Under the pieces are notes generated by a model. The model was not told the DNA's origin. It saw nothing but the letters and a program-made list of their open reading frames with translations, and did not search any database. A stretch of 63,189 nt of DNA, the filler included, from an uncultured archaeon (GTDB taxonomy: Archaea > Nanobdellota > Nanobdellia > Woesearchaeales > CAIVOO01): assembly GCA_903842985.1 (NCBI GenBank). It is 5 parts of 5 records of this genome, joined end to end, with 100 filler letters (N's around TTAATTAATTAA, not from the genome) between each part and the next. Parts side by side here need not be neighbours in the genome. Positions count along the whole stretch, not along the records: positions 44,187 to 59,934 come from CAIMOB010000040.1; 4 more parts are not named here. The stretch is one strand, 5' to 3'. Shown one piece after another: positions 27,078-56,646 of the stretch; the first letter of the stretch is position 1; every line of letters starts with the position of its first letter. A program made the translations under genes and the position numbers.

Positions 27078-27119
27078 TTATGACACCTCTTTTGTCTTTT
27101 TATGCATATTTAGTATATG

Positions 27120-27140: not shown

Positions 27141-27161
27141 TTTTAAGGCAATATTAAGTAT

Positions 27162-28378: not shown

Positions 28379-28404
28379 TTTAACCTTGATATTTTCTTGG
28401 TATT

Positions 28405-31138: not shown

Positions 31139-31139
31139 T

Positions 31140-32189: not shown

Positions 32190-32202
32190 CTTAAGAATCT
32201 AA

Positions 32203-35489: not shown

Positions 35490-38400
35490 GATGATGTTGT
35501 TGATGTTGTTGCAGCAACACACTTTGTTGCGAGCGTTGCAAAGTGTATGTATTCGCAGAGGACAGCTTTGTTTGTCTTCTTTGCAAGACTGTATATGCAG
35601 TCATCTCTCAGCAGTTCTGTATAGTCGCATAGTGGGTAGAGTTCGTATCTTCCGATTTCAACTATGTAATCCTCAAAGCATTCTGCAGCTGAAACTTTGG
35701 TTTGGGCCTTGCAAGCACGGGTTATCAAAACTTTATAACAATCTTTAGGATTTTGGGATGAGCTGCATCTGCTCTCCATGTTTCCTGAATCAGTTATGAC
35801 CTCAGCTTCTTCCTGCGCCCCTTCGCCTGCGCATTCTCCCTCAATGCAGATAGTTACCCTTGGCCTTTCTATATCCCTTTCAATGTAATAGCTTTCTCTA
35901 AACTTATTTGATGCATTGTCTATTGCTGTTATGGAGAGCACGTTCGGCGTTACAGCACCGACTTCGCCGATAACTGTTGAATTGGCTTTAAAATAAAATG
36001 CGCCGGTTGTTGAGTTAAAGCAGTTTGTCTTCTTTATTGAAGTGCAGGGCTTAAGTATCTCGCCTATTTGAACTCCTGACCGTTCAAACATGATTGAATT
36101 TACTTTACTCTGGCCGACATCAGTTACAATCCCTGTGACAGATATCAGGTCTTCCTTCACAGTATATTTTTCATACTGGAATACTGGTTGTTCGCCCGGT
36201 GCCATTTCAAGCCCGCGAGTCAGTGTCTCTGACGCCCAATAGATTGGCTTTGCGTTTATTTTAACACTATCATCTAGCGATGGAGGTATTGTGTCAATTA
36301 TCAATGTCGCAGTATTGCTGTCATTATAGTTGCCTGCATAATCTGAGATGTTTGCCAGCAGTGTCCAGGTCTCGTCGTGGCTTAGGTAGATTCCCTCAGC
36401 TGAAAGATTTTCTTGCGTTATGCTGCCGAAGAAGAGGTCCATTGCGGTTTTTGAAACTATGTCTGTCACATAAGCCTGCTGTGTCCTGTTCAGCCTTACA
36501 TTCGCCTTTAATGGGTGCTTTTCAGAACTTCTCTTTATTATTGCTGAGAATTGTACTGGCGATGAATTTGATATGAATTTATTTGCAAGTTCGAAATCAA
36601 TTATTGCAGGCGGCGTGTGGTCAACTGCAAATAGGATGCTGTACTTTGCGTAATCTGATTTTCTTTCTGCAAGCTGCTTGAATGCAGTTATTATTATTTC
36701 ATAATCTCCTTCTGGAAGATTGGTTACCTCAGACGGCAGACTGCATGTAAAGTTGTTGTTTCCATTAGCTATGCAGCTCATATTGTGCGGAAGATTTCTC
36801 AGCCTCATTTCAGATATCGTTACAGGGACTGCGTCAGGGAACTTTACATTGAAATCAGGTCTTGGGAGCGGTGTCATGATGTAGCTGTCTGGCGCGACTC
36901 CGTAGCGGCCAATCACTGTAACATTCGGCCTTCTTGGCGCGAGATTGTCAACATTAAAATCGAATGTCTTGCCAGCACTGTTCCCTGCCAAATCAGTCAC
37001 ATTTAATGTGAGATTGTAATGCCCATTTTCAAATTTCTTAGGAACGTTTACTGTGTACGCCGGTGCAGACCCGCTCTTGGCAGAAGCTATGGTTGCGCCA
37101 TTTAATTCAACACTCCAGTTTAGCAAGTCAAACTGCTCGTAAATGGTAAAGTTAATTCCTTCAAGACTGTGGAAACTGCTTCCTGATGTCAACGCAATTG
37201 TTCCGGCATCAACAAGTGCAGTCTCGGATGTAATATCCGGAGGCGTTGTTTCATAAATTATATTGTACTTGTCTGTTGGCGCCCCTTCGTTTTCAGCCTT
37301 GTCCTGCTGTGAGACATAGAGAGTATTGTTGCTAAATGTTTCGTCTGCCAAAATGTCATTAAGTTCAACCTGCGCAATGAAGTTGTTGCTTGGAAGCTGT
37401 GTGTCATAGATTGTGAATGCTTCACCCTTGGCGACTGTTTTTTCGACGCCCGCATTCAACGTGAGCATTGCACCTGAGCCTGCAGGGGTTGCTCTGCACA
37501 TTCCAGAAGCAGAGTCAAGTGTTGTGCTACGAGGGCAGTCATTTTGTACAGGAGAATATTTGCACAACTTAGCAATTGTATTGTATGTTGTGCCGGAAGG
37601 ACAGTTTGGATTTGCTTCGCATAGTCCACTGGTTGCGTTTAATGTTGTTTCAGCAGGGCAGTCATCTTGCACAGGAGAATATCTGCATAATTTAGCGGGT
37701 ATACTATATCTTGTGCCGGAAGGACAGGTTGGAATTACTGAGCGACCTGGCCAATCCGTTACGTCGCACAATCCACTGGTTGCGTTTAATGTTGTTTCAG
37801 CAGGGCAGTCATCTTGCACAGGAGAGTATTCGCATAACTTATTTGTTGTATCATAAACTGTGCCGGAAGGACATGGATTTACTTCGCATAATCCACTGGA
37901 CGCATTTATTATTGTGCCAGCAGGGCAGTCATCTTGCACAGGAGAATATCTGCATGACATGTCTGCCACATTATATGCTGTGCTGGAAGGACATGAGTTT
38001 GCTTCGCATAATCCAGAAACTAAACTATATTCTGAGCCAGCAGGACAAGGAAGTGTAACGGCGATTATCTTATAGAACTTGCCATAATTACTGTATGACT
38101 GCCTTGAATGCGATTCAAATTTAACATACTTACCTTTGTATGCCTGCATATCTGCAAGTAAGATTCCTGAAACTATCAGCTCATTGCTGCCCTTGTTGAT
38201 TGTGAATGCTGCTACAAATCTTTCATCTGTTGTCGCGTTTGCAAGAGGCTGCTTGTATGTTGCAGCTGTTACTGGCGCATTATTTATCCAGAACTTTAAA
38301 GTTTCCCTTGTCTCTGCTGTTGTTCCGGAAATGTAAATCTGCTTGCTGTTTGTGTAATATGTAAAAGGAGTTTCGAAAAATATGTGAGGGTAGCTCTTGT

Positions 38401-41400
38401 CAATGTTTTCCATGGTTAGATATGTGTTAAGCTCAGGGTCAAGTACAGGAGTCACGTCAGAACCCCATCTGTCGACTGTGACTTTTATAGGCGCTGAAAC
38501 GCCTCTGTTGCCTGCCTCATCAATGACAGCAACAGTTATTGCGCCTTCGTTTCCATCTGGATTAAATGTTTCTGTCAGCGATGGCGGAAGCGCCACAGGA
38601 TATGTTTGTGTCAGTTCTGTTATAGACTGAGCTGTTCTATTGTCAACTTCAACACCATCTATCATGAATTCAATCTCTTTTATTTTTGACTGAGGAAGTT
38701 TTGTTGCTGCTGAATTATTCATCTTAATGGTGACATCTACTTTATTTTCTTTTGTAATCAAATCGCCGCTTGTTATTTCCACCCTTGGCGCGTCCTTGTC
38801 TACCTTTATCTGGTCGCATGGAACCTTTACTGCTTCCATGTTCCCGCCGCTGTCAACTGAAAAATAGCAGAGCTTTTTGTATTCGCTGACTGTAACCCCT
38901 TTTCCTGCAGATGTTGAAGGCGTGCAGTCTGTGTTTGAGATGCAGTATCTTGTGCTGTTGCAGCCGAACTCAGGATAAATGCCAAAGATTGGCGCGTCGT
39001 AGCAGTTAAATGCCACATCCCAACTTTTGCTCCAGTTCGTTGTGGCTTCTGCAGGAACTAGCCCTGTTACAGGCGCTGTCCTGTCAATTGAAAATGCTAT
39101 CTTTGGAGTCATCGAAGATTTTGTAAGCTGCTGCGTGTCAAGGCTCTTGCATCTCACATAGTAGTTAAATGCATTGTTGTCATATCCCCCAAGGTTTTCC
39201 TGAGCAGTATGGTGCCTTTTGTCTGTTGATGTGGTTGAAAAAGACTTTGCTGAACTGAATTGGCTTTCTGAGATTATTGGCGCGCTATCATACCTGCAAT
39301 CTGCGTCAATCATTGTTTCAACAGACAATGTCACAGAATTGTAATTTATTGTTCCGGACGGCTTGCCGTTGAAAACAAGATTGTCCTTGTCAACAAGTAT
39401 TACTTTCTGGGCGCTTGTTGGATTTCCAACCAAGTCATAGCAGGTGTAGTTGTAGTAGTAGATTCCGTCAGTCAGCTGGTAGGTCCTGCTGAAGCTCCTT
39501 GCAGGCTCGTACAGGAGCAGATTGTTCTCTGTCTGCAATGCTTCCCCATCCTGGCTTTTCATTGCTGCATCGCAGGATAGAATATCATCCGAGCTTAAGG
39601 TAACAATTATGTCTGTTCCAATCCCGTAGAGCCAGTTGAATGCTACTGTCGGCGGAATTTTGTCTATTGTAACTGTGAATGGCCTGATTATCTCAAGGTT
39701 ATCTGCTGTGTCCTGCGAATAATAATTAACAGTATAATCCTGCTGTGTATTTGGAGGAATGTCTAAGTATTTTATCTTCCCTTCGCTTGCCTCTGTGAAA
39801 CAAGATTCAGATGGAGTTCCTGCGCAGAGGAATGTCTTTGCGTCGCTTACAGGAGTGCTGTTGAGCGGGTCATAAACAACATAGTCAAAGTTTATTTCAT
39901 TTGCCGTCTTTGGATGAAGCACAACAGTGTAAGGCGGCTGCATGTCTGTCGGATTCGGGTCTCTAAGATTATCATCATTTGCGTCCTTTACGCACTTGAC
40001 TGGATAACTAGTTAAATTAAATTTGCATAGCCCAAAACCAAAGTAATCTGTGCTTTTATTAGCAGGATTAATTGAGTTTGTCACATACTTGTTGGCGCCC
40101 ATATCAACTTTATTTGTGTTTGTTGTTCCGCAGCCATTGTTTGAGCTGTCTTTATAATAAACCTCGCAGCTTGAATCCTTTTTGTTTACGCAGTGCTTGC
40201 CTGTCGTATAGTAGCAGGATGAACTTGTTCCTGCACTGTTACTTCCGTATGCAGTGCATAAGTTCTGGCTGCAGTTAAGGAACAAATCATTGAATTTGCC
40301 TGACTTTTCGCATCTGCTGCAGTCGCGGTTTTTTTCGTCATCTGGCACGCAGACTCCCATTCCAAGGTCAGAGAATGTGGTGTGCGCAACCCAGTGGCAG
40401 GGCATATCCTTTGCACACTTGTTCTGGACGCACGCGGATTCAGACTGGTAATCATAACAGCTTTTTACATTCTTGCAGCTGAAATACTTGTTGACTGCTG
40501 ATTTTGTGTAATCAACATAGCATGCCCTTGCTTCTGGAAATAATGACATATCTGCACTGCATGACACAAGCTCATTTACCCCCTCCCTTGGCACATTAAG
40601 GAAGCCTGCATAGCTGAACATTCCGAGCGGAGGGTTGCACTGCGAGCAGTCAACATCATTAACATAAACTGTTGTTATTTGCGTTTTATACATGCAGATT
40701 GAATTCTTATTTTTTGTTGTGTCACTTATCTCTTTCACTGTATTGTTTGCTCCGCACTTGCTCCTTGTATTATTTACGCAGACTTCATCGCTTCCAGGCA
40801 CCTTTGCAAAGCACTCTGCCTCTCCAAGCGAGATTGTTTTTGGTTCTGAGAATACCTTGTCAAGCAAAAAATTATCATAGTAGGCCATTATCTGGTAATT
40901 GTAAGTTTCTCCTGCCTCAACAGTTAAGTCTGTGTATGACCCTGCATTGTTTAAAATAGAAATTCCGTCTGCTATCGGCTGGAGTGTGCAACCAGCTCCC
41001 TTGCATCTGTAGACATAAACAAGGCCAGGACTGCATTCTGTATTGAATGAAATTCTAACATTTGTTCTTTTGTTTGTTAAATCTTTAAGAAGCTCTATGC
41101 TTGTTATGTTCGGCGATGCAACACCAGTAAGGCACCTTGCAGGAAGAAGCGGGATGTTCTCGCCTGTTGTTGTGGCGACTCCGGATGTCCTTGAACCCTC
41201 AACATATCCTGCCTTCTGCGTGATTAGTGTGTAGTTTGCTGCCATCACTCCTTCAATTTTGTAATTCCCGCTTGAATCTGTCAGAGCTGACTTAACAAGT
41301 TCTGCAAGCGGTGCAGGAATAAAGACAGATGCATCGGCTATCCCATCGCCGGTCATGCTGTCTGTTACCCTTCCGGAGATTGATTTGTCTGCAGCTGAAA

Positions 41401-42631
41401 TCTGTTTCAGCGCTATTGGCACTGTTTTTGTTGGAGCATCAAGCGTTGCTGCTATTGTTTGTGTTTCATAAGTTTCCTTGAAAATAACAATTGTGTAATT
41501 TGCCCTCATCAAGTTTGCAATGAACTGCCCGCTTGAATCTGTTGTTCCTCTTGCAGACTCTGCAACAGCGTCTATTTTTTTAATTACAATTGTTGCGCCT
41601 CCAATGTTTGCTGGAGGAGCTGCGGTGTCTTTGACAATTACTGTCAATGCTGTCATTTCAGCTGCCTTTGACGGCAGGATAAAGTTCTTTGTTATTGTCG
41701 CCTGGATTATGTTTACTACATCGCTTGTTTGCGTAAGGTCTGTACTCGTGCTTGGAGGAGTTGCGCTGGCGGTGTAGGTGCCGATTGGAATGTTTGAAAT
41801 CTCATATCTCCCGTTAGCTCCGGTTATGTTTGAAAAGCCGGCTATTGAAACTATTGCATTTGCAACAGGAACGCTTGCTGAGTTGTAAACAATCCCAGAC
41901 AGCTTTCCGACGACAGCTGCCGGCGGGTTTATCTGGAGCAGACTGAAGTCCTTGCCAGAAAGCGATGTTGCCACATCAGTCAATGTAATTGTCTTGCTTT
42001 CGTAGCCTGGCTTTGAAGCAGAAAGTGTGTAAGTGCCCTGCGGCATGTTTGTTAATGCATATGTTCCATCTGAAATTGTTGTTGTTGTTTTGCCTGCTGC
42101 TGTGACTGTCACGTTTTCAAGAACTCTATTGCTTGTGTCCTTTACAGTGCCTGATATGGTTATTGTAGCTTCCCTAGGCTGTGTCAGCCCTGTGCAAATG
42201 TCCTGATTTGTTGTTGCGCGGAACCAGCTCATGTATGTGGTCTTCAGCGCCTGGCACTGCGCCTGCCCTTCTCTCATATAATAAAAGCCTATTGAATAGA
42301 CATCACCATGGCAGAAAACGCATCCTGTCCTGCAGTCTGAATAAAGTGAGCAGCTGCCTGTCACAAATTTTGAAGGCGCTGAGCAAAGTTTTGGAGAAGA
42401 ATATGTGCCGACTTTTGCAGATTTGCAAGTGTCAATGCAGCAGGAGTCTGTAACAGCGTAGCAGTTTGCAGAGCACTGCGCAGCTGAATCATAGACATTG
42501 CAGTTTGTTGCTGTTGCTGTGCAGAAAAGTGAAGGGTTTGATATGTCAAAACAGCAGCCTGCATTTGCTGAGAAACTAAGAAGTGGTAAAAGTATGAGGA
42601 TTGAAAATATCAAAACGTATTTTTTATACAT
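35486..42631 (-). CDS. Giant (~2380 aa) secreted/surface adhesin-like protein: Cys-rich N-terminus, four carboxypeptidase-regulatory-like beta-sandwich repeats, Cys-rich region, Ig-like domains, internal Cys tandem repeat
   Basis: Signal MYKKYVLIFSILILL...ANA; ISGTVKD...TT..DG.Y...GTYTL.ASK.GY repeats; DxxPP/DxAGN Ig-like motifs. Confidence 0.85.
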   Translation of the reverse strand: MYKKYVLIFSILILLPLLSFSANAGCCFDISNPSLFCTATATNCNVYDSAAQCSANCYAVTDSCCIDTCKSAKVGTYSSPKLCSAPSKFVTGSCSLYSDCRTGCVFCHGDVYSIGFYYMREGQAQCQALKTTYMSWFRATTNQDICTGLTQPREATITISGTVKDTSNRVLENVTVTAAGKTTTTISDGTYALTNMPQGTYTLSASKPGYESKTITLTDVATSLSGKDFSLLQINPPAAVVGKLSGIVYNSASVPVANAIVSIAGFSNITGANGRYEISNIPIGTYTASATPPSTSTDLTQTSDVVNIIQATITKNFILPSKAAEMTALTVIVKDTAAPPANIGGATIVIKKIDAVAESARGTTDSSGQFIANLMRANYTIVIFKETYETQTIAATLDAPTKTVPIALKQISAADKSISGRVTDSMTGDGIADASVFIPAPLAELVKSALTDSSGNYKIEGVMAANYTLITQKAGYVEGSRTSGVATTTGENIPLLPARCLTGVASPNITSIELLKDLTNKRTNVRISFNTECSPGLVYVYRCKGAGCTLQPIADGISILNNAGSYTDLTVEAGETYNYQIMAYYDNFLLDKVFSEPKTISLGEAECFAKVPGSDEVCVNNTRSKCGANNTVKEISDTTKNKNSICMYKTQITTVYVNDVDCSQCNPPLGMFSYAGFLNVPREGVNELVSCSADMSLFPEARACYVDYTKSAVNKYFSCKNVKSCYDYQSESACVQNKCAKDMPCHWVAHTTFSDLGMGVCVPDDEKNRDCSRCEKSGKFNDLFLNCSQNLCTAYGSNSAGTSSSCYYTTGKHCVNKKDSSCEVYYKDSSNNGCGTTNTNKVDMGANKYVTNSINPANKSTDYFGFGLCKFNLTSYPVKCVKDANDDNLRDPNPTDMQPPYTVVLHPKTANEINFDYVVYDPLNSTPVSDAKTFLCAGTPSESCFTEASEGKIKYLDIPPNTQQDYTVNYYSQDTADNLEIIRPFTVTIDKIPPTVAFNWLYGIGTDIIVTLSSDDILSCDAAMKSQDGEALQTENNLLLYEPARSFSRTYQLTDGIYYYNYTCYDLVGNPTSAQKVILVDKDNLVFNGKPSGTINYNSVTLSVETMIDADCRYDSAPIISESQFSSAKSFSTTSTDKRHHTAQENLGGYDNNAFNYYVRCKSLDTQQLTKSSMTPKIAFSIDRTAPVTGLVPAEATTNWSKSWDVAFNCYDAPIFGIYPEFGCNSTRYCISNTDCTPSTSAGKGVTVSEYKKLCYFSVDSGGNMEAVKVPCDQIKVDKDAPRVEITSGDLITKENKVDVTIKMNNSAATKLPQSKIKEIEFMIDGVEVDNRTAQSITELTQTYPVALPPSLTETFNPDGNEGAITVAVIDEAGNRGVSAPIKVTVDRWGSDVTPVLDPELNTYLTMENIDKSYPHIFFETPFTYYTNSKQIYISGTTAETRETLKFWINNAPVTAATYKQPLANATTDERFVAAFTINKGSNELIVSGILLADMQAYKGKYVKFESHSRQSYSNYGKFYKIIAVTLPCPAGSEYSLVSGLCEANSCPSSTAYNVADMSCRYSPVQDDCPAGTIINASSGLCEVNPCPSGTVYDTTNKLCEYSPVQDDCPAETTLNATSGLCDVTDWPGRSVIPTCPSGTRYSIPAKLCRYSPVQDDCPAETTLNATSGLCEANPNCPSGTTYNTIAKLCKYSPVQNDCPRSTTLDSASGMCRATPAGSGAMLTLNAGVEKTVAKGEAFTIYDTQLPSNNFIAQVELNDILADETFSNNTLYVSQQDKAENEGAPTDKYNIIYETTPPDITSETALVDAGTIALTSGSSFHSLEGINFTIYEQFDLLNWSVELNGATIASAKSGSAPAYTVNVPKKFENGHYNLTLNVTDLAGNSAGKTFDFNVDNLAPRRPNVTVIGRYGVAPDSYIMTPLPRPDFNVKFPDAVPVTISEMRLRNLPHNMSCIANGNNNFTCSLPSEVTNLPEGDYEIIITAFKQLAERKSDYAKYSILFAVDHTPPAIIDFELANKFISNSSPVQFSAIIKRSSEKHPLKANVRLNRTQQAYVTDIVSKTAMDLFFGSITQENLSAEGIYLSHDETWTLLANISDYAGNYNDSNTATLIIDTIPPSLDDSVKINAKPIYWASETLTRGLEMAPGEQPVFQYEKYTVKEDLISVTGIVTDVGQSKVNSIMFERSGVQIGEILKPCTSIKKTNCFNSTTGAFYFKANSTVIGEVGAVTPNVLSITAIDNASNKFRESYYIERDIERPRVTICIEGECAGEGAQEEAEVITDSGNMESRCSSSQNPKDCYKVLITRACKAQTKVSAAECFEDYIVEIGRYELYPLCDYTELLRDDCIYSLAKKTNKAVLCEYIHFATLATKCVAATTSTTSS
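37490..38050 (-). repeat. About 4.5 tandem 40-49-aa Cys repeats (CP.GT.Y....LC.YSPVQDDCPA.T.LNA.SGLC)
   Basis: Units at 37531, 37654, 37801 and 37921; a 54-bp segment is identical at 37625-37678 and 37772-37825. Confidence 0.92.
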
Positions 42632-42687
42632 CAATAACACCACTTTTTAAAGAATTTAAAGCAATTTTATTTATAAAGGTTTTGGAA

Positions 42688-44086
42688 TTAAGTGCAGGTT
42701 GTAGCAACATTGGCGCTGCAAGTTACAATTGTACCAGAGGCATCTTTATAACCGCAGCACCTAGTGTTAGTTTTGTCCCACTTAGCACCCATATAATTGC
42801 ATTTGACACATAAATCGCAGTTTGTTGCAAAAGTACCTACCACTACGTTCTTGCACGAATCATTTATGCCATTTCCATTAGAATCAAACATTCGAACTCC
42901 CAAAGATTGTGTTGGATTGCAACCTGATTTCAAGATAGAGCCTGTTGATACAAGTGGCTGGCAGGCGCCTCCAGCAACAGTTGTTGTGCAGTTGCTTACC
43001 TTGCCTGGAGTGCATATGTCCTGAACAGTTGGACCCATGAGTGTTATTGTTGCCTGCTGGTCTGCAAGTCCGCTGACATCCCAGCAGTTTATCGGTTCCT
43101 CTGTATAAGGAGGAGGTGTCGGCGAAGTTTCAAGCTTGCAGAAATATTCGTTGACAGCATATTTGCCTGAACAGCTGTCTTTTAGATTGTATGCAGCAGG
43201 ACTGCAGATGCCTTCAATGCTGGGGTCAAGATTCCACTGCTTAACATTGCAGCCGCCGCTCATTCCATTTATGCTTCCTGCTATTTCTGGGTGTCGCCCC
43301 CCGTCTGAATCATCGCACATCTGTGCATCTTTGTAGCAGTCTGTGCAGTCTGTAACCTTGCTGCATTTGCCTGTTCCATCGCATGTTGCCTTGCAGCTGT
43401 ATTGTGTGACAACTGCGGGGTCTGTCGGCGCAGTTGCATAAGCATTATTTCCAAGACTATCGACACATCTTGGGGTATAGGAGCAGTTTCCTTTTGCGCC
43501 TGCAATGCCCATCACCTTTTCCCAGGTTGTTCCTGCAGGAACACTCACACATTCTGAATGATCCATTGGAGTCATGCTGCAGCCAGCGCATTTTTCATTG
43601 GGTCCTTCTGTTTTTGTGCAGCCAATTGTTTTTATTCTCACTTCAACAGGCGTGCCTGTGCAGGTGTTTCCGCTATCACCTGAACATGTTCCGTTTAGGT
43701 AGCGCTCGAAAACGTAACTTCTATTTTCAGCAGGTATTTGACTAATAAGGTAACTGATAAATACTGGTTGTTTATTGCCATCAATAATTTTATATCTTAT
43801 CATCGGTGTTTGTAAAATGCCTAAGTGATAGACAGATGCATTAAAGTTTGCGTTGTAACAGCCGTATTCTTTGACACTCTGGTAGCAGACTGTTCCAGGA
43901 CCTGCATAACTGCCCCAACCGCCAGCACTGGGTGCCGGAGGATTTGTGTTCGGTGAATTCCCAACGCAGCAGATGTGGTCTGCCTGGTACGGGTCGCTTG
44001 CATTGAATGGGAACGGCGCGTCATGCATTATTGGCGGGGTTGTATCTGAGTGCGGAAGGCACTGATAAAATGTCATGTTGACTGTA
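42688..44086 (-). CDS. Cys-rich surface protein, 5'-truncated at contig end
   Basis: Open frame up to the gap; dense Cys, CDDSDGG...G...DSC...VNEYFC module. Confidence 0.75.
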
Positions 44087-47274: not shown

Positions 47275-48225
47275 ATGAATATTATCTGGACAGAAAAGTA
47301 CAGGCCTAATGATTTTTCTGACATCTATGGCCAAGAAAGCATTGTTAAAAAGGTAGAGGCATTTGTAAAGCAGAAGAACATGCCCCATCTTCTTTTTGTC
47401 GGCCCGCCAGGAATTGGAAAAACCTCGCTTGCGCTGGTTATTGCAAGGGTTCTCTTCAAGGATATGTGGAAGCAGAATTTTCTTGAGTTGAACGCGTCTG
47501 ATGAAAGGGGCATTGATATAATAAGAAACAAGGTGAAGGATTTTGCAAGGACAAGGGCAATTGGTGATGTGCCGTTCAAGATAATTTACCTTGACGAATG
47601 CGATGCATTGACAAGAGAGGCTCAGCAGGCATTGAGAAGAACAATGGAAAACTTCACCCAGACCTGCAGGTTTGTGCTTTCTGCAAACTACAGCAGCAAG
47701 ATAATTGATCCGATACAGTCGAGATGTGCCATATTCAGGTTTAAGCCGTTGGACAAGGAAGATATGATTAAAATAATTGATAATATAGCAAAACAGGAAA
47801 ACCTTAAAGTTGAGGCAAAGGCAAAGGAGGCGCTTTTTGAGGTTTCAAGCGGCGACTGCAGAAGAACAGAGAATATAATGCAGAGCTGCGCAGCAATCTC
47901 CCAGAAAATAACAGAAGATATAATCTACTCGCTTGCATCAATGGCAAAGCCAAAGGAATTAAGGGAAGCGCTTGAAATGGCCATTGACGGAAAGTTTGTT
48001 GAAGCCAGGGACAAGATTCTGGACGTAATGCTTAAATACGGGCTTTCAGGTACTGATGCTATTAAGCAAATACAGCGCGAAATACTCAATTTAAGCACAA
48101 ATAATAAAAATAAGATGATACTTACTGAGAAATGTGGCGAGGCAGAATTCAGGATGAATGAGGGAAGCGACGAATTCATCCAGCTTGAAGCGTTCCTTGC
48201 CCAAGTATGCTTAGTTGGAAAATGA
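47275..48225 (+). CDS. rfcS: Replication factor C small subunit
   Basis: WTEKYRP, GPPGIGKT, LELNASDERG, LDECD, SRC. Confidence 0.96.
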   Translation: MNIIWTEKYRPNDFSDIYGQESIVKKVEAFVKQKNMPHLLFVGPPGIGKTSLALVIARVLFKDMWKQNFLELNASDERGIDIIRNKVKDFARTRAIGDVPFKIIYLDECDALTREAQQALRRTMENFTQTCRFVLSANYSSKIIDPIQSRCAIFRFKPLDKEDMIKIIDNIAKQENLKVEAKAKEALFEVSSGDCRRTENIMQSCAAISQKITEDIIYSLASMAKPKELREALEMAIDGKFVEARDKILDVMLKYGLSGTDAIKQIQREILNLSTNNKNKMILTEKCGEAEFRMNEGSDEFIQLEAFLAQVCLVGK

Positions 48226-49142
48226 ATGCTGAAAACTTTTTAAAAGAGGCAAATAGTGTATTGAGCGAGATTGGCGAGAGCAAAAAGCTGATTTACTCTC
48301 TTTCTGAAGAAAACAAGCTGCTGAAAAGGAAGCTTCTTGAAAAGATGGATATGATTGACAGCCTTGGAAAGACTCTTCAGGAGATGAACCAGCTCAAAAA
48401 TGGCAGAAGTGAGCTGATCAGCCAAAACAGCATACTGAAGATGAAGCTAAAGGAAAAGATTTCCCAGATAGAAGTGTTTTCTAGCAAAATAGATATGCTT
48501 ACAAGGACGCTTGTCAAGGGCGATAAATTTATACATGACTTAAAAGCAAGCTATGACACAAAAGAGAAAGAAGTGGATTTATTGTCAAAACAAATAAGAT
48601 TTCTTACCTCAGACCAGAAGACTAGGCTTACTGATCTTAAGAAAAATATAGAAGAAGATGCAAGGCTGATTGACTTCCTGAAGGGTAAAGTTGGAGAACT
48701 AAACTCGCTTGAAAATGTTAATGAGGAAAAAGTTGTTGAATCAAATATGAGGGAGAATGAAATAGAAAGGCTGTCAAGCCTTGTCAATCAGTTCAGAGGA
48801 AAAGCTGACAGTCTTATGGAAATAAATAAAAAACTTACGAGGGAGAACCAGGAGCTTGAATTCAGGCTAAGCGAGGCTGAAAAGTCAAGACCAAGGGCTT
48901 CTGAAGTGAAAAAGATTCCTGTTGGGAGTTTTATTGAAAGGGAGATAGAAGAAAGGATGAAAAATCCTAATGTAAAAATTGCCGGCTTCAGGCTGGATGA
49001 TCTGGAGATGAATGAGATAAATGCGGTCATCAAGACTGCGCTTGCGCACGGCGATTCATTGAATAGGATAAAGAATTCTTTAGTAAGCTGCGGATATAAA
49101 GAAGAAAAAATAGAAAGGTGTTTAGCCTTTCACAACAACTGA
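48222..49142 (+). CDS. Coiled-coil hypothetical protein; probable start 48222
   Basis: Heptad-rich K/E/L sequence; C-terminal small helical domain (IKTALAHG..LNRIK.SLV..GY). Confidence 0.65.
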   Translation: MNAENFLKEANSVLSEIGESKKLIYSLSEENKLLKRKLLEKMDMIDSLGKTLQEMNQLKNGRSELISQNSILKMKLKEKISQIEVFSSKIDMLTRTLVKGDKFIHDLKASYDTKEKEVDLLSKQIRFLTSDQKTRLTDLKKNIEEDARLIDFLKGKVGELNSLENVNEEKVVESNMRENEIERLSSLVNQFRGKADSLMEINKKLTRENQELEFRLSEAEKSRPRASEVKKIPVGSFIEREIEERMKNPNVKIAGFRLDDLEMNEINAVIKTALAHGDSLNRIKNSLVSCGYKEEKIERCLAFHNN

Positions 49143-50042
49143 TTTTGAAGTTGAAACCTTGTGGTCATATCCAAGCGTTATCTCAACTGTCTTTACAAAG
49201 TCGCCCTGCCCTCCTGTTTTCTGCGTGCAGGTTATCTGCCTTTCGCCATTGTAAAGTGTTACATCACCTGAAACAGTTCCAGTTCCTGTGCTTATTCCGC
49301 TGCAGCTTAGCTCGCTTGTCATTCCTGTATTAATCTTAAAATTCACAACATTCTCGTTGCTTATTCCTGATGCGCAGTTTAGGCCGCTTTTGAATATCTC
49401 TCCTGTTCCTGTCTGCTTTAAGACGATTGTAAGAAGAATTGAATCCTTCCCACCTGCAGACTGTCTGACTGAAAATACCTGAACAGGCGCTCCTGAATTT
49501 GCGACAGGCCTGTCTGAGTCTACTATGCAAACTGAGGTATCAACCTTTGTCAGGTCCTTCTTGATGCATGTGCTTGTCAATGCCTTTGTTCCATATGCAT
49601 AGCATGCATCTGCCTTTATTGTGTGCTGTACATCTCCAGGCAAGTCAGCCTTGTAGCTGAATCCTGGGAATGTGAATACAAGCTGGGAGCCCTGTATAAT
49701 CGCGCCTGCTGAGTCCTTTTTTGTTGCTGAAAGCAAAGTATCTGAACTTTTCTGCATATTGGCATCTACCATTCCAAAATCAACAGGGTCTACTCCAGAA
49801 AGGCTTATTTTTAGGCTGCCAACTGGCACGTCCCATTCGCCAGCATTCTTAACCTGGACAGCAACCTGAAATTCTGCCCTATTTGCATCATAAACAGTAT
49901 CTGGCGGCGCATCCTGCAAGAAATTAATAAGCAGTCCGTTTGTTCCGCCAACAAATGATGGTCCTGCAACACCTTGGTCCTGCGTTTGGCAGCCAAATAA
50001 TAAGAGCGTAAACGCCATTAAAACAATAAGCATTTTTTTCAT
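49122..50042 (-). CDS. Lipoprotein, paralog 3 of 3; probable start MKKML
   Basis: LLFGC lipobox; GL.INF...APP..VY, N.GE.D, ACYAYGT, SGAPVQV, LGYDH. Confidence 0.75.
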   Translation of the reverse strand: MKKMLIVLMAFTLLLFGCQTQDQGVAGPSFVGGTNGLLINFLQDAPPDTVYDANRAEFQVAVQVKNAGEWDVPVGSLKISLSGVDPVDFGMVDANMQKSSDTLLSATKKDSAGAIIQGSQLVFTFPGFSYKADLPGDVQHTIKADACYAYGTKALTSTCIKKDLTKVDTSVCIVDSDRPVANSGAPVQVFSVRQSAGGKDSILLTIVLKQTGTGEIFKSGLNCASGISNENVVNFKINTGMTSELSCSGISTGTGTVSGDVTLYNGERQITCTQKTGGQGDFVKTVEITLGYDHKVSTSKSVVVKG

Positions 50043-50091
50043 TTTAACACCTCGCATAATATGTTTTGTTTTATTTAATTTAAAAAACTTT

Positions 50092-50997
50092 CTATATCTT
50101 TTTGAATTTTACTGACTTTTGTATAGTATTCATATAACCGTAATTAAGCATTAAATTCAAGGTTGATGTGAACGCCTGGTTCTGTGCAATATTAAAAATG
50201 CATGTCAGTGTTGCTTTGCCATTAACCAAAATAAGCGGGCTTGGTGGTGAGCAGGTTGTCGGCAGGTTGCTTGTTCCAATTTTTATATCAGAATAATCTA
50301 TTCTGTCAATATCTGAATATTTTAAATCTAAACAATGCGTTATTGCATCTTTTAAATAAGCCTGACCATTTCCTGAATTTGAAATAGTCATCTTAAATAT
50401 TGCCTTGCCTGGCAATGATTCCTGCTGAACAGATGTTATTGCAAGCGGTGCGCCCTGGCTTCCTGCAGCAATTGCATGGGGTATGCATGCCTTTGCAATT
50501 ACGACGCCGTACGGGTCCGGATCTACGCAGATAGGCAGGCTTGCCTGTGTTTCATAATAATAGCAGGCTGCTACCATCAGATTAAATGAAAGCTCGTCTG
50601 TGCCTGGAGGAAGATTTACTACCCCAATTGCCTTGTTGAATTCTGTGAAACCGCCCTGTGTATTTTGCGTGCTTCTTCCTTCCAAAGAGCCAACTGAAGT
50701 TCGCGAGCTGTCAAGGTTCCTGAAAATATTTGGATCAAACCCCAGCAGATAAATATCTGGTGTTGCCGTGTATGCGCCTTCATTTTTTATATCCACAACA
50801 AGGTCGTAAGGCACTTCTGTTGAATCTGATTGAATAAACATTGAGGCAGGAGGAGTATTTTGAAGAAAGCTCATTGTTATGCCTTTTGTCCCTGTATGAG
50901 GCACCTGTGCTGTCTCTGCATTTTGCTTTCCAATCTGAAGACTGGTGCAGCCTGTAAGGAGAATAACAGCAATAAATAGCATAACTAGTTTTTTCAT
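50092..50997 (-). CDS. Lipoprotein, paralog 2 of 3
   Basis: LLTGC lipobox; GITMSFLQNTPP, NEGA, ACYYYET...ICVD, SQGAPLAIT, LNYGY. Confidence 0.75.
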   Translation of the reverse strand: MKKLVMLFIAVILLTGCTSLQIGKQNAETAQVPHTGTKGITMSFLQNTPPASMFIQSDSTEVPYDLVVDIKNEGAYTATPDIYLLGFDPNIFRNLDSSRTSVGSLEGRSTQNTQGGFTEFNKAIGVVNLPPGTDELSFNLMVAACYYYETQASLPICVDPDPYGVVIAKACIPHAIAAGSQGAPLAITSVQQESLPGKAIFKMTISNSGNGQAYLKDAITHCLDLKYSDIDRIDYSDIKIGTSNLPTTCSPPSPLILVNGKATLTCIFNIAQNQAFTSTLNLMLNYGYMNTIQKSVKFKKI

Positions 50998-51039
50998 TTT
51001 TATTTTTAATATATCCTCAATATATAAATTTTTCTTATT

Positions 51040-52038
51040 TTAGTCAACTGGAGTATGTAATGATGGGTTTTTTATTATTGAAATTGATTTTGATATTGTT
51101 TGGGTATAGCCATAGGTAAGGTTTATTACCAGAGTTGTCTGGTAGGCAACTGCTGACATTATCGAACTGGTGTATACACATCTTACATAATCTTCGTCGC
51201 TTTTAAGCTTCATTGGAATAGGTGTGCATTCAAATTGGCCGTTTTCCTCGCCGCCAAGGCTCAGTGTTATGTCAACAATGTTCCACAAATCCTTTTTATC
51301 TTCAGGGGTTATTTTCGGGCTGCAGGCAAGCCCAATCTTTTCCTTGTTGATGACCTCTCCGCTGCCTTTATTTTTTATGTATATTTTGAATTCTGGCTTT
51401 ACTGTGTTCCCGCCGGACGGAAGCATTGCCGATTCTATTTTTGTTATCGCGACCGGCGCACCCTGGCTCGTGAATGTCAAATCCTTCACAGTGCACGGCT
51501 TTACCCCTCCTGTTTCATATGGGTTTGTGTCTATGCAGACTGCTGCTGATTGGACAGTTGAATAATCATAGCATGAAATGATTTGCAAAAGCGAGTCGTG
51601 CTTTTCACTGAGCTCATCAAGCATTTTTGTTTTCAGCTTGTTTGTGAACATCTTCTGCTCGCCAGCGGGATTTTGGATTGACTTTCCATTTAATACAAAA
51701 CTTGTTGTTTTTTCTTGTGTAGAAAAAAGATCATCTACTGTCCAGCCTCCGTTAGGCGCAAGTTCGACATAATCCTCTTCATAAGCGAGCATAAGGTAGC
51801 CCTGCTTTATGTCTGATGCGCCCTTGTTGGCGAGCGTTGCAGAAAATTCAAAAATTCCTTCATAGCCGCCCTGTCCGCTCTCATAAACACTTGTCGGCGG
51901 AGTTCCCTGCACAAAGTTCATAACCAGCCCGTCTGTTCCTGTTCTAATGTCTGTATCTATTGCTGATTTTTTTGATGGAATAAGTGTGCACGAACTAAAG
52001 ATGAATGCAATCAATGCTATTAAAATTATTTTTTTCAT
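51040..52038 (-). CDS. Lipoprotein, paralog 1 of 3
   Basis: IFSSC lipobox-like; GLVMNFVQGTPP.SVY, NKGA.D, SCYDYST...VCID, SQGAPVAIT, LTYGY. Confidence 0.75.
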   Translation of the reverse strand: MKKIILIALIAFIFSSCTLIPSKKSAIDTDIRTGTDGLVMNFVQGTPPTSVYESGQGGYEGIFEFSATLANKGASDIKQGYLMLAYEEDYVELAPNGGWTVDDLFSTQEKTTSFVLNGKSIQNPAGEQKMFTNKLKTKMLDELSEKHDSLLQIISCYDYSTVQSAAVCIDTNPYETGGVKPCTVKDLTFTSQGAPVAITKIESAMLPSGGNTVKPEFKIYIKNKGSGEVINKEKIGLACSPKITPEDKKDLWNIVDITLSLGGEENGQFECTPIPMKLKSDEDYVRCVYTSSIMSAVAYQTTLVINLTYGYTQTISKSISIIKNPSLHTPVD

Positions 52039-54329
52039 GCGAACTTGTCCTTAAAATTTGAGTAGTAGCCCATAACATTTGAAACATACTTGTTTATCTC
52101 GTCCACTTTTGCCTGTCTTTTTTGGTCGTCCCAGCATTGCCCTGCGCTCCAGCAGCTGTTGTAGTCATCCATTGTTTTTAAAAGGCTTGGGGTCAGTTGT
52201 TTTGAGGCATCTTCCCACGTCGGATTAGGGCCTGCATTTGCCATGGCTTTTAGTATCAGCCCTTCTCCCCCATTATAAGAGGCTGCGATGAAGTATTCCT
52301 TGTATCCCTCTCTTGCAGATACAAATTTGTTTCTTAAGGTAGCCAGATATTCTGAACCTGCCTTAATTGATTTTTCCGGGTCGGTTCTGTAATCGTATGT
52401 TCTGCATGCCTCATCCCCGCAAAGCTTGTATAATGCAGCTGTTGCTTTGCAGAACTGCAGCAGCCCTGTGCATCCTGTCGGCGATGTTGCTGTCGGATCA
52501 AGTGCAGGGTCCTCTGCAGCCATTACTGAGGCAACAAGCGCATGCTGCTCTTTTGTTCCTGTCTGGCTTTCAATGATTTGCTTGTATGTCTTGTCATTGG
52601 ATTTCTTTTCCTCTAGCGATTTTAAAAACTCCTCAGGATTTTTAACTGGCTGAAGCACTGTTGGCGGCTTTGCATATGAGTAAAGCCCTGTTTTAACCTG
52701 CACAGATAGTGTTTTCGAAGTTTCATAATCATAATTTACTGTTGCCTTGAAGTATCTTGTTGTGATTGGCGTAGTGCCAAGGATTTTGTCAACATCAGAT
52801 ATTGTCAGCATGCATTTGAATGTCTGGAACCCCCTTATTTCCTGCTGCTCCTTCAAATGCAGTATTGATGGGTCTTTTTCGTCAAGCTTGTACGCCACAT
52901 ACCCCTCTTGTTTTTCTGTTGAGTTTGGAGTGTACAGCTCAAACTTATTGCTGCAGTCTCCCACGTCATCAATTTTGCCGGGAGCTCCTGTGTTTATTGT
53001 AAATCCTTCTGGAATGAAAATTGTAAGGTCTTTAATGTCACGAAGCTTCCCTTCCCATCTGTTGCTTATTGTCAACCCGAATGCAGGCGGAATTGCCTCG
53101 ATATCTATTCCTATCGGAGGTGTTGAAATGTCCATGCCAATCATGACTGGTCCATTGGTGTATATTGCAACTGGTGTTTTGTCTGTTATTTTATACTGTG
53201 TTAATGGGTCTATTCCCTCCCTTTGCATAGACCTTAATTTATTCCTGTCCATAAAATAAGCTTTCATGTAAGACATTGTTGGAAAATTAAAGACTGCGCT
53301 GACTTTAACTGTGTGGCTGCCTACAGGCATGTCTGAAATCCTGCATTCTATGTCCTGCTCTTCCAAAGAAAATATCGTAAAGCTTGTTCTTTGATTGCCA
53401 AGCTCGTTGCCAAGCATCATTTTGCCTAGATATTTTTCATTGTCTGCAGAGCATGAAGGAGTTATTGTAACTTCCTTATCTATTGTTTTCGCCTTTACAG
53501 TTGCCCATACTGCTGCCTCTTCTCCTTCATAAAAAAATGCATCTGTTGATTGAAGATTTTCAATATAAACGCCGAGTGGTTCTGCCTTGTTCTGCTCAAC
53601 TTGCCCCATATAATAGTCTCCTGCCGCATATGCAACCTGCGTCTGCCAGAGTTTTGAGATTACTTGAGGGAAATCTTTTGCATTTTTAACTACTTCTTGC
53701 GCAACTATGCCAATTTTTCCCACAAGCCCCACATTTGCTGTGAGCTGCTCAGACGTTATCCCCATATCATTTAGGATTGAATTGACGCTGCCTGTCAGGA
53801 TTATAAATGTTATAAAAGAGACAATGTATAAAAAAAGAAGAATTTGTGCGAATTTTGACTGAGATGATGCCTGAAGCAATAGAACTACAAACCAGATTGG
53901 AACCGCCACTATAAAAAACTGAAGCACACCTATGTTTGACAGGAAAGGGGTGTTAAGCACAACAAGCGGAAGTGCAAATGCCAGCAGCGAAAGAATTGCT
54001 GCTTCTTTCAGCCCAACATATCTCGCTGCCACAGCCCAGCTAAGTACAATTATATAAAATAAAAACCTAATAAGCCAAGGCATTGTAAACCCAAAAAAGA
54101 CATCCATCGTATGAAATGCCAGAAGAATTATCAGAAAAATTCCGACGCCAGAAAAGTTTCTTGTAACTGCGCCTGCTGTTGATTTTCCAGCTCCCCACAT
54201 CTTTGACCCCAATGAAGAAAATACTGACCCTATTGCTTTTGCAGTTTCTTTTGCCGTATTTTTTTGTTCTGGTTGATTTATTATAATTGTTGGTTCCTTA
54301 CCTTCCTTTTTATCTTCATTACCGGGCAT
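52035..54329 (-). CDS. Multi-pass membrane protein with extracellular beta domains and C-terminal lytic transglycosylase (SLT/GH23) domain
   Basis: About 5 TM helices; VASVMAAEDP...ATSPTGCTGLLQF, DPEKSIKAGSEYL, AASYNGG, EINKYVSNV. Confidence 0.85.
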   Translation of the reverse strand: MPGNEDKKEGKEPTIIINQPEQKNTAKETAKAIGSVFSSLGSKMWGAGKSTAGAVTRNFSGVGIFLIILLAFHTMDVFFGFTMPWLIRFLFYIIVLSWAVAARYVGLKEAAILSLLAFALPLVVLNTPFLSNIGVLQFFIVAVPIWFVVLLLQASSQSKFAQILLFLYIVSFITFIILTGSVNSILNDMGITSEQLTANVGLVGKIGIVAQEVVKNAKDFPQVISKLWQTQVAYAAGDYYMGQVEQNKAEPLGVYIENLQSTDAFFYEGEEAAVWATVKAKTIDKEVTITPSCSADNEKYLGKMMLGNELGNQRTSFTIFSLEEQDIECRISDMPVGSHTVKVSAVFNFPTMSYMKAYFMDRNKLRSMQREGIDPLTQYKITDKTPVAIYTNGPVMIGMDISTPPIGIDIEAIPPAFGLTISNRWEGKLRDIKDLTIFIPEGFTINTGAPGKIDDVGDCSNKFELYTPNSTEKQEGYVAYKLDEKDPSILHLKEQQEIRGFQTFKCMLTISDVDKILGTTPITTRYFKATVNYDYETSKTLSVQVKTGLYSYAKPPTVLQPVKNPEEFLKSLEEKKSNDKTYKQIIESQTGTKEQHALVASVMAAEDPALDPTATSPTGCTGLLQFCKATAALYKLCGDEACRTYDYRTDPEKSIKAGSEYLATLRNKFVSAREGYKEYFIAASYNGGEGLILKAMANAGPNPTWEDASKQLTPSLLKTMDDYNSCWSAGQCWDDQKRQAKVDEINKYVSNVMGYYSNFKDKFA

Positions 54330-54350
54330 CTTAAAACAGAAAACCTCTTT

Positions 54351-55544
54351 TTATTCGTAAGTTACTTTCAAATCGATTATTTCAAGATTCGCGGACGGGA
54401 TTATCTTGATTGCATTATTGTCCTGCTTCACAAAATCACTTAGGTCCTTTATGAATTCCTTCTTGGTTGTGTCCAGGCTTGTTTTTATCCCGTTAATTCT
54501 TAATTCTGCTCTTTTACTTTCAAAATCATCTGTAAACAGCATTCTCAGCTTTATCTTCTTTGTGCCTTGTGTTATTTTGTCAAATCTTTTTGATGATAAG
54601 TCAAAGTAATATGTCGGATAAACTGGCTCTTTCAACTTCAGCTTTACAAGTAGGTTATCAAGTGTGTAATAAGCTGTTGTTGGGCCTGCAAACTTTGTCC
54701 TGAACTCCATTGAGTTCTCCCCACTTATCAGTATTGCTGGGTCAAATTCCTGCTGTACATAGTCGCCGCAAAGCGGAAGCTGTGAATAAATCAAATGGTT
54801 ATTTATCGACACTTCAAGCTTGTCAAGCTCAAGTTTTTTGTCGCAGCTGACATAGAATCTTGCTGTGCTCTGATCAAGATTATTTATCTCTGTTGATGAG
54901 ATTATGAAATTTGTTTTTGACGCCTGTTTTGTGATGTCTGTTATGTCTGCCAGAACCTGAACATTCGAAAGCTCGTAAGCATTTGTTGACCAGAATTTAA
55001 TTCCGACAGATGAAACTGAAAACACAAGCTTGTTCTGGTCTTTTATGTCTGACTTATCAAGATTAATTACAACATTTGCCTCTTTTATCTCTTTGTCATA
55101 TATCAATTTATCATTTAGCTTCACCATTAAGTTTCCCTGTGCCTTGTCCAGATTAAAGTTAAGCATGAAATTATCTGAGTTTTTCAAATCAGAGACAGGG
55201 AATATCATCTCATATGTTTGTGTGGCAAACCAGCTGTTCTTGACTGTTATGAAATCCTGTTTTTTAACAACTGCTGATCCTGTCTTTATGTAAAGCGAAA
55301 ATGAAGGTATTGATTTCTCATACTCTGTTGTTGGAAGATACTCCAACAGCATAGGATGCTCCAAAAGCAGCGTGATGTTACCTTCGGTTGTTCCTCCCGT
55401 TTCTGAAGTTTCGTTTACTGTCTGATTGTAAAGAAGGCGCTCTCTTTCAGAAGGAGGCAGAAACAATATGTACAGTATAATGAGACCCATTATAATCGCT
55501 ACAAGCATCGCTGCCTTTGAGCCGCTCTGGCTTTTTTTATTCAT
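54351..55544 (-). CDS. Prepilin-like membrane-anchored beta-rich protein
   Basis: MNKKS|QSGSKAAMLVAIIMGLIILYILF. Confidence 0.7.
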   Translation of the reverse strand: MNKKSQSGSKAAMLVAIIMGLIILYILFLPPSERERLLYNQTVNETSETGGTTEGNITLLLEHPMLLEYLPTTEYEKSIPSFSLYIKTGSAVVKKQDFITVKNSWFATQTYEMIFPVSDLKNSDNFMLNFNLDKAQGNLMVKLNDKLIYDKEIKEANVVINLDKSDIKDQNKLVFSVSSVGIKFWSTNAYELSNVQVLADITDITKQASKTNFIISSTEINNLDQSTARFYVSCDKKLELDKLEVSINNHLIYSQLPLCGDYVQQEFDPAILISGENSMEFRTKFAGPTTAYYTLDNLLVKLKLKEPVYPTYYFDLSSKRFDKITQGTKKIKLRMLFTDDFESKRAELRINGIKTSLDTTKKEFIKDLSDFVKQDNNAIKIIPSANLEIIDLKVTYE

Positions 55545-55596
55545 AACTGCTGAATAAATAAGAATATATATAAATGTTTTTCTATTTTAAGCGCCC

Positions 55597-56646
55597 ATGA
55601 AGGTTATTTATAAGGATTTCAAGAAAGGAGAGGTAAAGGTAAAAATAGACAGTGCAGATGACCTTTGGTTTTTAAGTGCGCTGGTGGAGCAGTCTGACAT
55701 AGTTTATGGAAGGGCTGAAAGAAAGATTAAAATCGGTGAAAGTGAGAAATCTGTTAAAAAGTCCATTTCTGTTGCAATATCTGTTGAAAAGGTTGAGTTT
55801 GACCCTTACGCAGGCGCGCTCAGGGTGAACGGAAAGGTTGTTGAAGGTTCTGAAGACGTTCCAAAAGGTGTGCATCAGACAATTGAAGTTGAAGAAAATT
55901 CAATAATAAAGGTAACAAAGGAGAGATGGTTTGAGTACCAGAAAAAAAGGCTTGAGGAAGCCACGAAAAACCTGAGCCTGAATGTCCTTATTGTGGTGTT
56001 TGACAGGGAAAATGCAATTTTCGCCCTGCTTAAGAAATATGGCTATGATGTGCTTTCGAGCATTGAAGGCGATGTTGAGAAGAAAGGAGTGCCAAAACAG
56101 AAGGAAAGCACATTTTTTTTGGACATAGTAAAACAGATTAAGCTTTACGACGACAGGCTTGATTTTTACAAAATTGTTGTTGCCAGCCCCGCATTCTGGA
56201 AAGAGGAGATTGTAAAACTGATAAAAGATAGCAAACTCAAGGAAAAGATTGTGTCTGCTTCGTGCAACTCAGTCAGTAAAAATGGGATTGATGAGGTATT
56301 GAAAAGAGGCGAGATAAAAACTGTCCTGAGGGAAGAAAGGGCTGTGAGGGAGATGAACCTTGTTGAAGAGCTTCTTGGCGAGATAGGAAAGAACGGCCTC
56401 GCGGGGTATGGCATTGATGAAGCTGAAAATCTCGCAAATGCCAGCAATGTGAGGGTCCTGCTTGTTACAGACAAATTCATAAAATCAAACAGGCTGGAAA
56501 AAACATTTGACAGGATTGACAGCCTAATGAAAGCTGTTGATAAAATTAAGGGAGAGATTCATGTAGTGAGCTCTGAGCATGAAGGCGGTAAAAAACTTGA
56601 CGGGCTTGGCGGGATTGCTGCACTGATGCGCTACAAGAATTACTGA
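55597..56646 (+). CDS. pelA: mRNA surveillance protein Pelota (aDom34)
   Basis: DDLWFL, LRVNG, HQTIEV, VASPAFWK, HEGGKKLDGLGGIAALMRY. Confidence 0.93.
   Translation: MKVIYKDFKKGEVKVKIDSADDLWFLSALVEQSDIVYGRAERKIKIGESEKSVKKSISVAISVEKVEFDPYAGALRVNGKVVEGSEDVPKGVHQTIEVEENSIIKVTKERWFEYQKKRLEEATKNLSLNVLIVVFDRENAIFALLKKYGYDVLSSIEGDVEKKGVPKQKESTFFLDIVKQIKLYDDRLDFYKIVVASPAFWKEEIVKLIKDSKLKEKIVSASCNSVSKNGIDEVLKRGEIKTVLREERAVREMNLVEELLGEIGKNGLAGYGIDEAENLANASNVRVLLVTDKFIKSNRLEKTFDRIDSLMKAVDKIKGEIHVVSSEHEGGKKLDGLGGIAALMRYKNY

Follow-up and report, generated by a model that had tools for sequence, protein, structure and literature searches.

The proposal that Woesearchaeota live on bacteria has so far been based on scattered matches to glycoside hydrolase family 23 (GH23). 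The question is raised again by a block of five genes at positions 49122..55544 of a 63,189-nucleotide stretch of DNA (the window), in which a membrane protein, here called the carrier, ends in an SLT lytic transglycosylase domain and is encoded together with three predicted lipoproteins and a protein with a pilin-type leader (P397). The window consists of five contigs of one source genome (G000; 879 kb in 60 contigs, 92.65% complete, 1.64% contaminated) with N spacers between them; the block lies on contig C40, and a second SLT domain, borne by a pilin-leader protein, lies on C39. Is the enzyme a constant part of the block, and what might an archaeon use it for? Archaeal murein hydrolases have already been published; the block described here is a near-universal surface module, hitherto undescribed in the literature consulted, with an optional slot for wall-cutting enzymes.

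The carrier and its lytic transglycosylase domain

The carrier (764 residues, 52035..54329, minus strand) has five hydrophobic helices at residues 61-178, which the AlphaFold model (pLDDT, the predicted local distance difference test, of 86) places at residues 61-179 (53793..54149, minus strand); relatives have one to eight. In the model these are followed by a helical linker, then by a pair of beta domains (residues 253-546; 52692..53573, minus strand), and by a helical domain at residues 565-759 (52053..52637, minus strand). The architecture recognized in the earlier note, about five transmembrane segments, beta domains that it placed outside the cell and a C-terminal SLT domain, is confirmed. 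Pfam places SLT at residues 591-705 (E 1.6e-16, 60.3 bits against a cut-off of 21.3) as the sole family up to E 0.1, with no known wall-binding domain. The helical domain superposes on MltF (5aa1) with Z 18.4 and a root mean square deviation (rmsd) of 3.0 over 175 aligned residues at 26% identity, with further matches to MltC, MltE and Slt70; a comparison with viral structures returned matches to SLT and nothing specific for the carrier ectodomain. In the alignment with MltC, Glu606 (codon 52512-52514) occupies the position of the catalytic Glu; GLLQ and SYNGG lie downstream of it, GLMQ and AYNxG being the names of lytic transglycosylase motifs. Pfam score, lysozyme-like fold, and the Glu with its motifs place the domain, which contains six Cys, in lytic transglycosylase family 1 (GH23/SLT). 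Judged by its sequence it is an intact-looking lytic transglycosylase, a further addition to an established family. Among the archaeal SLT rows, 40 of 42 retain the catalytic Glu.

In 54 of 75 carriers Lys and Arg are more frequent before the last membrane helix than after it, and in 8 they are more frequent after it. This positive-inside bias indicates that the C-terminal part faces outward; the SLT domain is accordingly predicted to be extracellular, not cytoplasmic, a location that would have undermined the earlier note's proposal.

Enzymes in the C-terminal slot

Pfam searches of approximately 160 carriers (58, at E 1e-4, plus 42, 56 and 3, the protein and genome sets partly overlapping) reveal seven enzyme families after the Ig (immunoglobulin-like) module: SLT, Glucosaminidase, Phage_lysozyme2, Amidase_2, Peptidase_M23, Peptidase_M15_4, and NLPC_P60. 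No further enzyme family was found on these carriers, the remaining matches being to fn3, crystallin and one DUF. We take all seven families to be peptidoglycan-cleaving and to span five folds. In addition, a cluster of Cys-rich tails mostly missed by Pfam is SLT-like by HHalign (98.4%) and has the Glu in 20 of 20 members. Orthologous carriers, for which the earlier note had asked whether they have or lack SLT, thus vary: the slot is optional, and SLT is only one of the seven hydrolase families that occupy it, a point that the note had missed.

When one locus per genome is counted, with four loci unscored where the profile end was not reached, 64 carriers of the same order could be scored; 21 are armed with a recognized hydrolase, 19 have another tail, and 24 are tail-less. 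The 21 armed tails comprise 14 SLT-like, two GH73, two M23, one amidase, one M15, and one NlpC combined with SLT-like. Carriers from other orders are uniformly tail-less (20 of 20; none armed). The protein set contains 39 armed carriers out of 69, with two unscored, and among loci found with the ectodomain alone 10 of 36 scored are armed. The other tails consist of Ig, FN3 or Cys-rich domains. By eye, those at L043:424-2364 and L140:7214-9196 and in P0009 and P0043 appear lysozyme- or M23-like, and the armed count is perhaps slightly low.

A quick ectodomain tree of 68 rows, from which L033, split by an assembly gap, and 15 of the 20 rows from other orders were left out, has 12 changes of the armed state in its best version, of which the starred branches force at least three. 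Within the family of the source genome three carriers have an SLT-type tail, two lack a tail, and one has another tail. Probably the widespread tail-less form is the older state, and hydrolases have been gained, swapped and lost as lineage-specific additions.

Four paralogues of a two-Ig module

Downstream of the carrier on the minus strand lie lipoprotein 3 (332 residues, 51040..52038), whose start overlaps the carrier stop by 4 bp, lipoprotein 2 (301 residues, 50092..50997), and lipoprotein 1 (311 residues, 49122..50057), the paralogue whose orthologue in other orders is most clearly recognizable. The three are homologous to one another (phmmer E 1e-27 to 1.5e-9). The shared motifs from which the earlier note had concluded as much are present, with two corrections: the spacing from CY.Y.T to the following C is six residues, not four, and in the 311-residue protein NSGAP and LGYDH stand where SQGAP and LxYGY were given. 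All three have a signal-peptide Cys, which is invariant in 61 of 61 sequences, and a lipobox-like pattern occurs in 181 of 198; these features are those of prokaryotic lipoproteins, and a lipid anchor is predicted.

The relationship extends to the carrier. Profiles of 81 carrier ectodomains and 111 lipoproteins align in HHalign at 95.0% globally (E 9e-9) and 85.3% locally, with reversed and P397 controls at no more than 0.2%, and cross-searches with the ectodomain and lipoprotein profiles return almost solely the other family. Narrower first profiles gave 6.4% against 2.0% for the reversed control, significance being reached only with the deeper profiles. At deep-branching loci, single proteins match both profiles. 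The profile alignments and cross-searches together indicate that the block encodes four paralogues of one two-Ig module; as read from the sequences, three are borne by proteins with a lipoprotein-type Cys and the fourth, the carrier ectodomain, is mounted on membrane helices. This paralogy of the carrier beta domains to the lipoproteins was missed by the earlier note. Structure matches to the beta part of the carrier are to generic Ig folds (Z 8-10, approximately 95 residues) spanning residues 253-548, which suggests that the second Ig domain is inserted within the first. A fourth lipoprotein-profile match in the source genome, considered as a possible carrier, was rejected as a signal-peptide match to another protein.

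Library searches with the lipoproteins yielded no Pfam family (two weak single-member matches among 61), signal-peptide matches only in NCBIfam, no PDB sequence below E 0.01, and hypothetical archaeal clusters only in the Atlas. The lipoprotein profile matches 4217 clusters at 50% identity, and a single-protein pattern scan returned one locus.

P397, a protein with a pilin-type leader

The first gene of the block encodes P397 (397 residues, 54351..55544, minus strand), a likely glycan-binding subunit. Its AlphaFold model (pLDDT 89) comprises a short anchor helix, a kink, a disordered linker, and three beta sandwiches; the membrane helix occupies residues 9-28, and the linker has three N-glycosylation sequons. 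Two of the three sandwiches match PNGase F (Z 12.3), BcsB (Z 11.6), CBM36, CBM16, and many other carbohydrate-binding modules (CBMs). The leader is a pilin leader, class III-like (KKS/QSGSKAAMLVAII), and a loose class III pattern is found in 65 of 77 homologues, a few of these matches being misplaced. Type IV pilins have Glu at position +5, which some minor pilins lack; in P397 this residue is Lys, and Glu is rare at +5 among the 77 homologues listed, which sets the protein apart from typical pilins. None of the structure matches listed has a type IV pilin fold, which does not exclude one. P397, described in the earlier note as pilin-like, is so in its leader alone, and its body has lectin-like jelly-roll domains.

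At L040, L042, L052, L054, L118, L135, L142, L143 and L148 longer versions occur, with P397 of 540-600 residues and lipoproteins of 420-680 residues, which suggests further inserted domains.

Spread and gene order

All five genes are co-oriented, as the earlier note had stated, are minus-strand open reading frames (ORFs), and are separated in the direction P397, carrier, lipoproteins 3, 2 and 1 by 21, -4, 42 and 34 bp. Independent sediment metagenome contigs bridge three junctions (52035-52038, 50997-51040 and 55544-55597), none covering the entire block. The divergent pelota gene (55597..56646, plus strand), a landmark outside the block, adjoins P397, and a group of coiled-coil, RFC and PRC-barrel genes flanks the other side, the RFC label being a by-eye sequence reading. 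Named homologues are from Candidatus Woesearchaeota or Nanoarchaeota.

The same set of 201 high-quality genomes of the phylum, source genome included, was surveyed with each profile. Matches to the lipoprotein profile occur in 190 (usually three in this order, one to three in others), to P397 in 194, and to the carrier ectodomain in 157, nearly always as a single copy. Of the 44 genomes without a carrier match, 11 were inspected with a deeper profile; in 10 a divergent carrier lies beside the other genes, and the eleventh has large lipoprotein-like proteins at that locus. Among 106 sampled loci of 3-19 kb, 103 of them with a carrier, P397 lies no more than two genes upstream of the carrier in 91 of 103 and a lipoprotein no more than three genes downstream in 97 of 103, several exceptions being contig ends; pelota is present in 60 of the 103. 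This spread and the kept order indicate that the block belongs to the core genome and is not an island. A mobile element was considered and rejected, the block lying between housekeeping genes across the whole order. The Atlas contains similar proteins in Aenigmatarchaeota (score 0.90), which is a lead only. Pfam SLT domains are found in 107 of the 201 genomes, on proteins of fewer than 200 to more than 3000 residues.

In family f78, P397 still adjoins pelota, and the carrier and two lipoproteins are elsewhere (loci among L092-L095, L100, L104, L214 and L215); at three loci of this type the carrier and lipoproteins are near genes that look glycosyltransferase-like by eye.

The two transglycosylase domains of the source genome

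The pilin-leader protein on C39 (21989..23157, minus strand) is cut by the contig end. Like the carrier it is conserved and has a hydrolase slot of its own, the second and separate one, which closes a pilin-like gene cluster: SLT, M23, Amidase_2, 3D or NlpC occurs in 11 of 21 relatives, three of these 11 having been found via SLT. Its domain and that of the carrier are 34% identical over 166 residues (E 7e-19), and all three motif pairs on which the earlier note based their kinship are present. Mis-binning of one contig is disfavoured: tetranucleotide correlations with the genome mean are 0.986 for C40 and 0.923 for C39, both loci are found together in the same-family genomes G003, G004 and G005, and both contigs therefore fit one organism; an origin in different organisms would, according to the earlier note, have refuted its proposal.

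The earlier note further proposed that the same lytic domain was shuffled onto the two envelope proteins. That lytic domains move among envelope carriers is supported; a copy passed between these two proteins is not. In a 46-row SLT tree the carrier domain groups with those of its orthologues, namely with P0001 and P0002 (99/94) and inside seven carrier SLTs (83/84), and the placement of the pilin-borne domain is not resolved. A tree constrained to pair the two domains is worse by 25.6 log-likelihood units, yet the approximately unbiased (AU) test does not reject it (p 0.069). Carrier SLTs require six changes on this tree, two of them forced, and some nest with pilin SLTs with unstarred support. 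Exchange of SLT domains among carriers at depth is likely, and these sequence comparisons lend no support to a recent copy within the source genome. A search with the SLT domain alone yielded no longer protein among 556 candidates and hence no bacterial donor, and the four outgroups are too few to name one.

The C39 cluster (window 21989-32685) has approximately 16 genes, mostly with pilin-type leaders and syntenic in relatives, and the second carrier is its last gene; one relative of this carrier has a tail with a GDSL domain. Upstream, at window 32682-44076, are three large surface proteins: one has 946 residues, another has 2385 and contains carboxypeptidase-regulatory and Ig repeats, and the third, rich in Cys, has at least 462. 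A third SLT protein of the source genome (G000:C4:22555-23826, 423 residues) lies on a long branch of its own and shows no relationship to either of them.

What the block may do

Our preferred account, to which we give about an even chance, is that P397 and the four paralogues assemble on the cell surface as a single complex for gripping a partner cell, and that the hydrolase, where attached, opens the partner's wall locally. With high confidence the carrier C-terminus is predicted to lie outside the cell and the three lipoproteins to be lipid-anchored; the four paralogues would, on balance, assemble as a hetero-oligomer that P397 joins after trimming by prepilin peptidase. The jelly rolls of P397 may bind surface glycans of the partner, for which the case is evenly poised. 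The SLT domain is very likely to be active on bacterial murein and, being tethered, would slightly more likely than not open the wall locally where the cells touch, as the machine-bound transglycosylases of phages and secretion systems do. A broader and tentative extension, which we consider possible though rather improbable, is that the block is a class-wide host-contact machine of Nanoarchaeia, composed of three or four Ig paralogues and a lectin-like subunit processed as a prepilin and older than the weapons, whose membrane subunit woesearchaeal lineages armed repeatedly with bacterial wall hydrolases of unrelated kinds; slot content would then record a turn to bacterial hosts.

Several observations weigh against the partner-gripping complex and its wall-opening role. 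No recognized hydrolase is present on 43 of 64 same-order carriers or on any of the 20 from other orders, and since most carriers are unarmed, the core job of the block needs no hydrolase; moreover, loci were selected according to score and in part for the length of their reading frames, so that the armed share is probably overstated and the true share may be lower. Ig matches for the carrier and jelly-roll matches for P397 are to generic folds, which are silent on function, and the neighbourhood of pelota and RFC is a housekeeping one. Sampled genomes of families f79 and f82 (G066, G111, G132 and G212; G090 belonging to f82) gave no match with the three profiles, the block there being lost or too diverged, and G066 and G132 of f79 nevertheless have SLT domains in frames of more than 2000 residues. 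No bacterial host of a Woesearchaeote is shown in the parts of the literature consulted. Much of this would suit a general envelope scaffold, such as an S-layer anchor, spacer or pore, from which a displayed hydrolase digests murein debris as food with no contact to live cells. The near-universal and mostly single-copy block, its housekeeping setting, the frequency of tail-less carriers in both groups of orders together with the Ig, FN3 and Cys-rich nature of the other tails, and the commonness of Ig-rich surface proteins in Nanobdella (10.1101/2023.10.27.564410, as far as its accessible text goes) are all in keeping with a scaffold. However, the enzymes in the slot are peptidoglycan enzymes only, general proteases and glycosidases being absent; single bond-cutters of different folds interchange there, which fits breaching better than full digestion; and four non-identical paralogues in fixed order would suit a defined complex over a lattice. 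We therefore regard the scaffold as fairly unlikely. A still more sceptical reading, in which the SLT domain does not function as a weapon against a host and instead serves for binding, has a chitin-like glycan as its substrate, or keeps off bacterial competitors, draws on two further unfavourable residues, the Asp that follows Glu606 where most family members have Ser and the Ala at the catalytic position of the same-family orthologue L033, and on the chitinase and GH124 cellulase present at lower Z in the list of fold matches. It is very improbable given the Glu retained in nearly all archaeal rows and the murein-peptide amidases and peptidases in the same slot, which a chitin substrate cannot explain. 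(The L033 carrier, L033:1283-3867 in G004, is interrupted by an assembly gap.)

The earlier note suggested another model: the five genes would supply the base, or the envelope portion, of the type IV pilus to which the C39 pilins belong, and both slots would serve one machine. The class III-like leader widespread among P397 homologues, the parallel slots at the two loci, and the unstarred nesting of some carrier SLTs with pilin SLTs are consistent with such a model, as are the pilus-type ATPases (C38 and C27) and the prepilin peptidase (C54) of the source genome, all encoded on contigs other than that of the block. A prepilin peptidase gene also lies within 15 of the 106 loci, 12 of these among the 20 from other orders, with Pfam backing for two. 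Such linkage speaks for P397 being processed, yet falls short of identifying the block as the base of a pilus. When the two ATPases and two TadC-like proteins of the source genome (TadC being a label read from the sequence, not a library match) were used as queries, no pilus ATPase or TadC-like gene was found at any of the 106 loci, and carriers thus do not lie beside type IV pilus ATPase genes in this sample. P397 lacks the +5 Glu and is modelled as a hinged anchor with jelly rolls rather than a recognizable pilin head, and the best tree does not join the two SLT domains of the source genome as sisters. A common machine is consequently unproven, and we consider it unlikely.

Seven peptidoglycan-cleaving families and no other recognized enzyme in the slot of a near-universal block constitute stronger evidence on bacterial partners than any single domain. 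Slot content is a possible genomic marker of lineages with likely bacterial hosts, and the five core surface proteins, which have no relatives in Pfam, NCBIfam or PDB sequences, are candidates for the contact apparatus.

Comparison with known systems

With the family 1 transglycosylases MltF, MltC and Slt70 (PF01464) the carrier domain has in common the fold, the catalytic Glu, and motifs II and III; it differs in being archaeal, in its five-helix carrier, in an Ig module absent from Pfam, and in the Asp after Glu and its six Cys. Murein transglycosylases have been reported in these lineages, with bacterial hosts or prey proposed (PMC8204110; Vigneron et al., 2022, PMC9723730; PMC10936187; all as far as the accessible text goes). 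In the accessible part of Castelle et al. (2021, PMC8204110), fam00969 is likewise an extracellular GH23 protein of Woesearchaeota and Pacearchaeota for which bacterial hosts were proposed. By description, it has 1947 residues and TMHMM 1.0 (Table S3), whereas the carriers here have approximately 390-1370 residues and in this order are mostly multi-helix; the five-gene block is not mentioned in that account. Strock et al. (2025, PMC12352652) describe, in the sections available, archaeal murein hydrolases with replacement of catalytic domains, prominent in Nanoarchaeota. Those enzymes have a known wall-binding domain and are patchy and plasmid-biased, whereas this carrier lacks such a domain, is membrane-tethered, and belongs to the chromosomal core; the survey, being limited to enzymes with a known wall-binding domain, would miss it.

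Phage T7 gp16 also has a wall-cutting domain on a surface apparatus, and weak gp16 matches were obtained. VirB1 and flagellar enzymes are machine-bound transglycosylases as well. Unlike in those systems, the enzyme here is optional and interchangeable, and the other four block proteins have no detected homology to them. Like P397, the cellulose synthase subunit BcsB has membrane-anchored tandem jelly rolls, a fold also found in CBMs; P397 differs from BcsB by an rmsd of 19 over the domain pair at 12% identity, by the absence of any synthase noted adjacent, and by its class III-like leader. The attachment organelle of Nanobdellota (10.64898/2026.06.04.730037), in the same phylum, is described in the accessible text as one stacked structure for contact that comprises a portal and a filament, with no subunits named; its hosts are archaea without murein, and no evidence ties the block genes to it.

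No description of the five-gene block, its paralogy or its slot was found in the literature, as far as the accessible sources extend; Table S3 of Castelle et al. may list families without annotation. Searches for papers linking Nanoarchaeota, peptidoglycan hydrolase and pilin, or Woesearchaeota, pilin and prepilin peptidase, returned none.

Other features of the window

A 311-residue coiled-coil gene (window 48207-49142) lies on the strand opposite to the block and shares 21 bp with the 3' end of the lipoprotein 1 gene; relatives often have a gene of variable length at this position. The region at window 11600-15100 has few ORFs and a raised GC content (0.48-0.49), and perhaps contains structural RNA genes.

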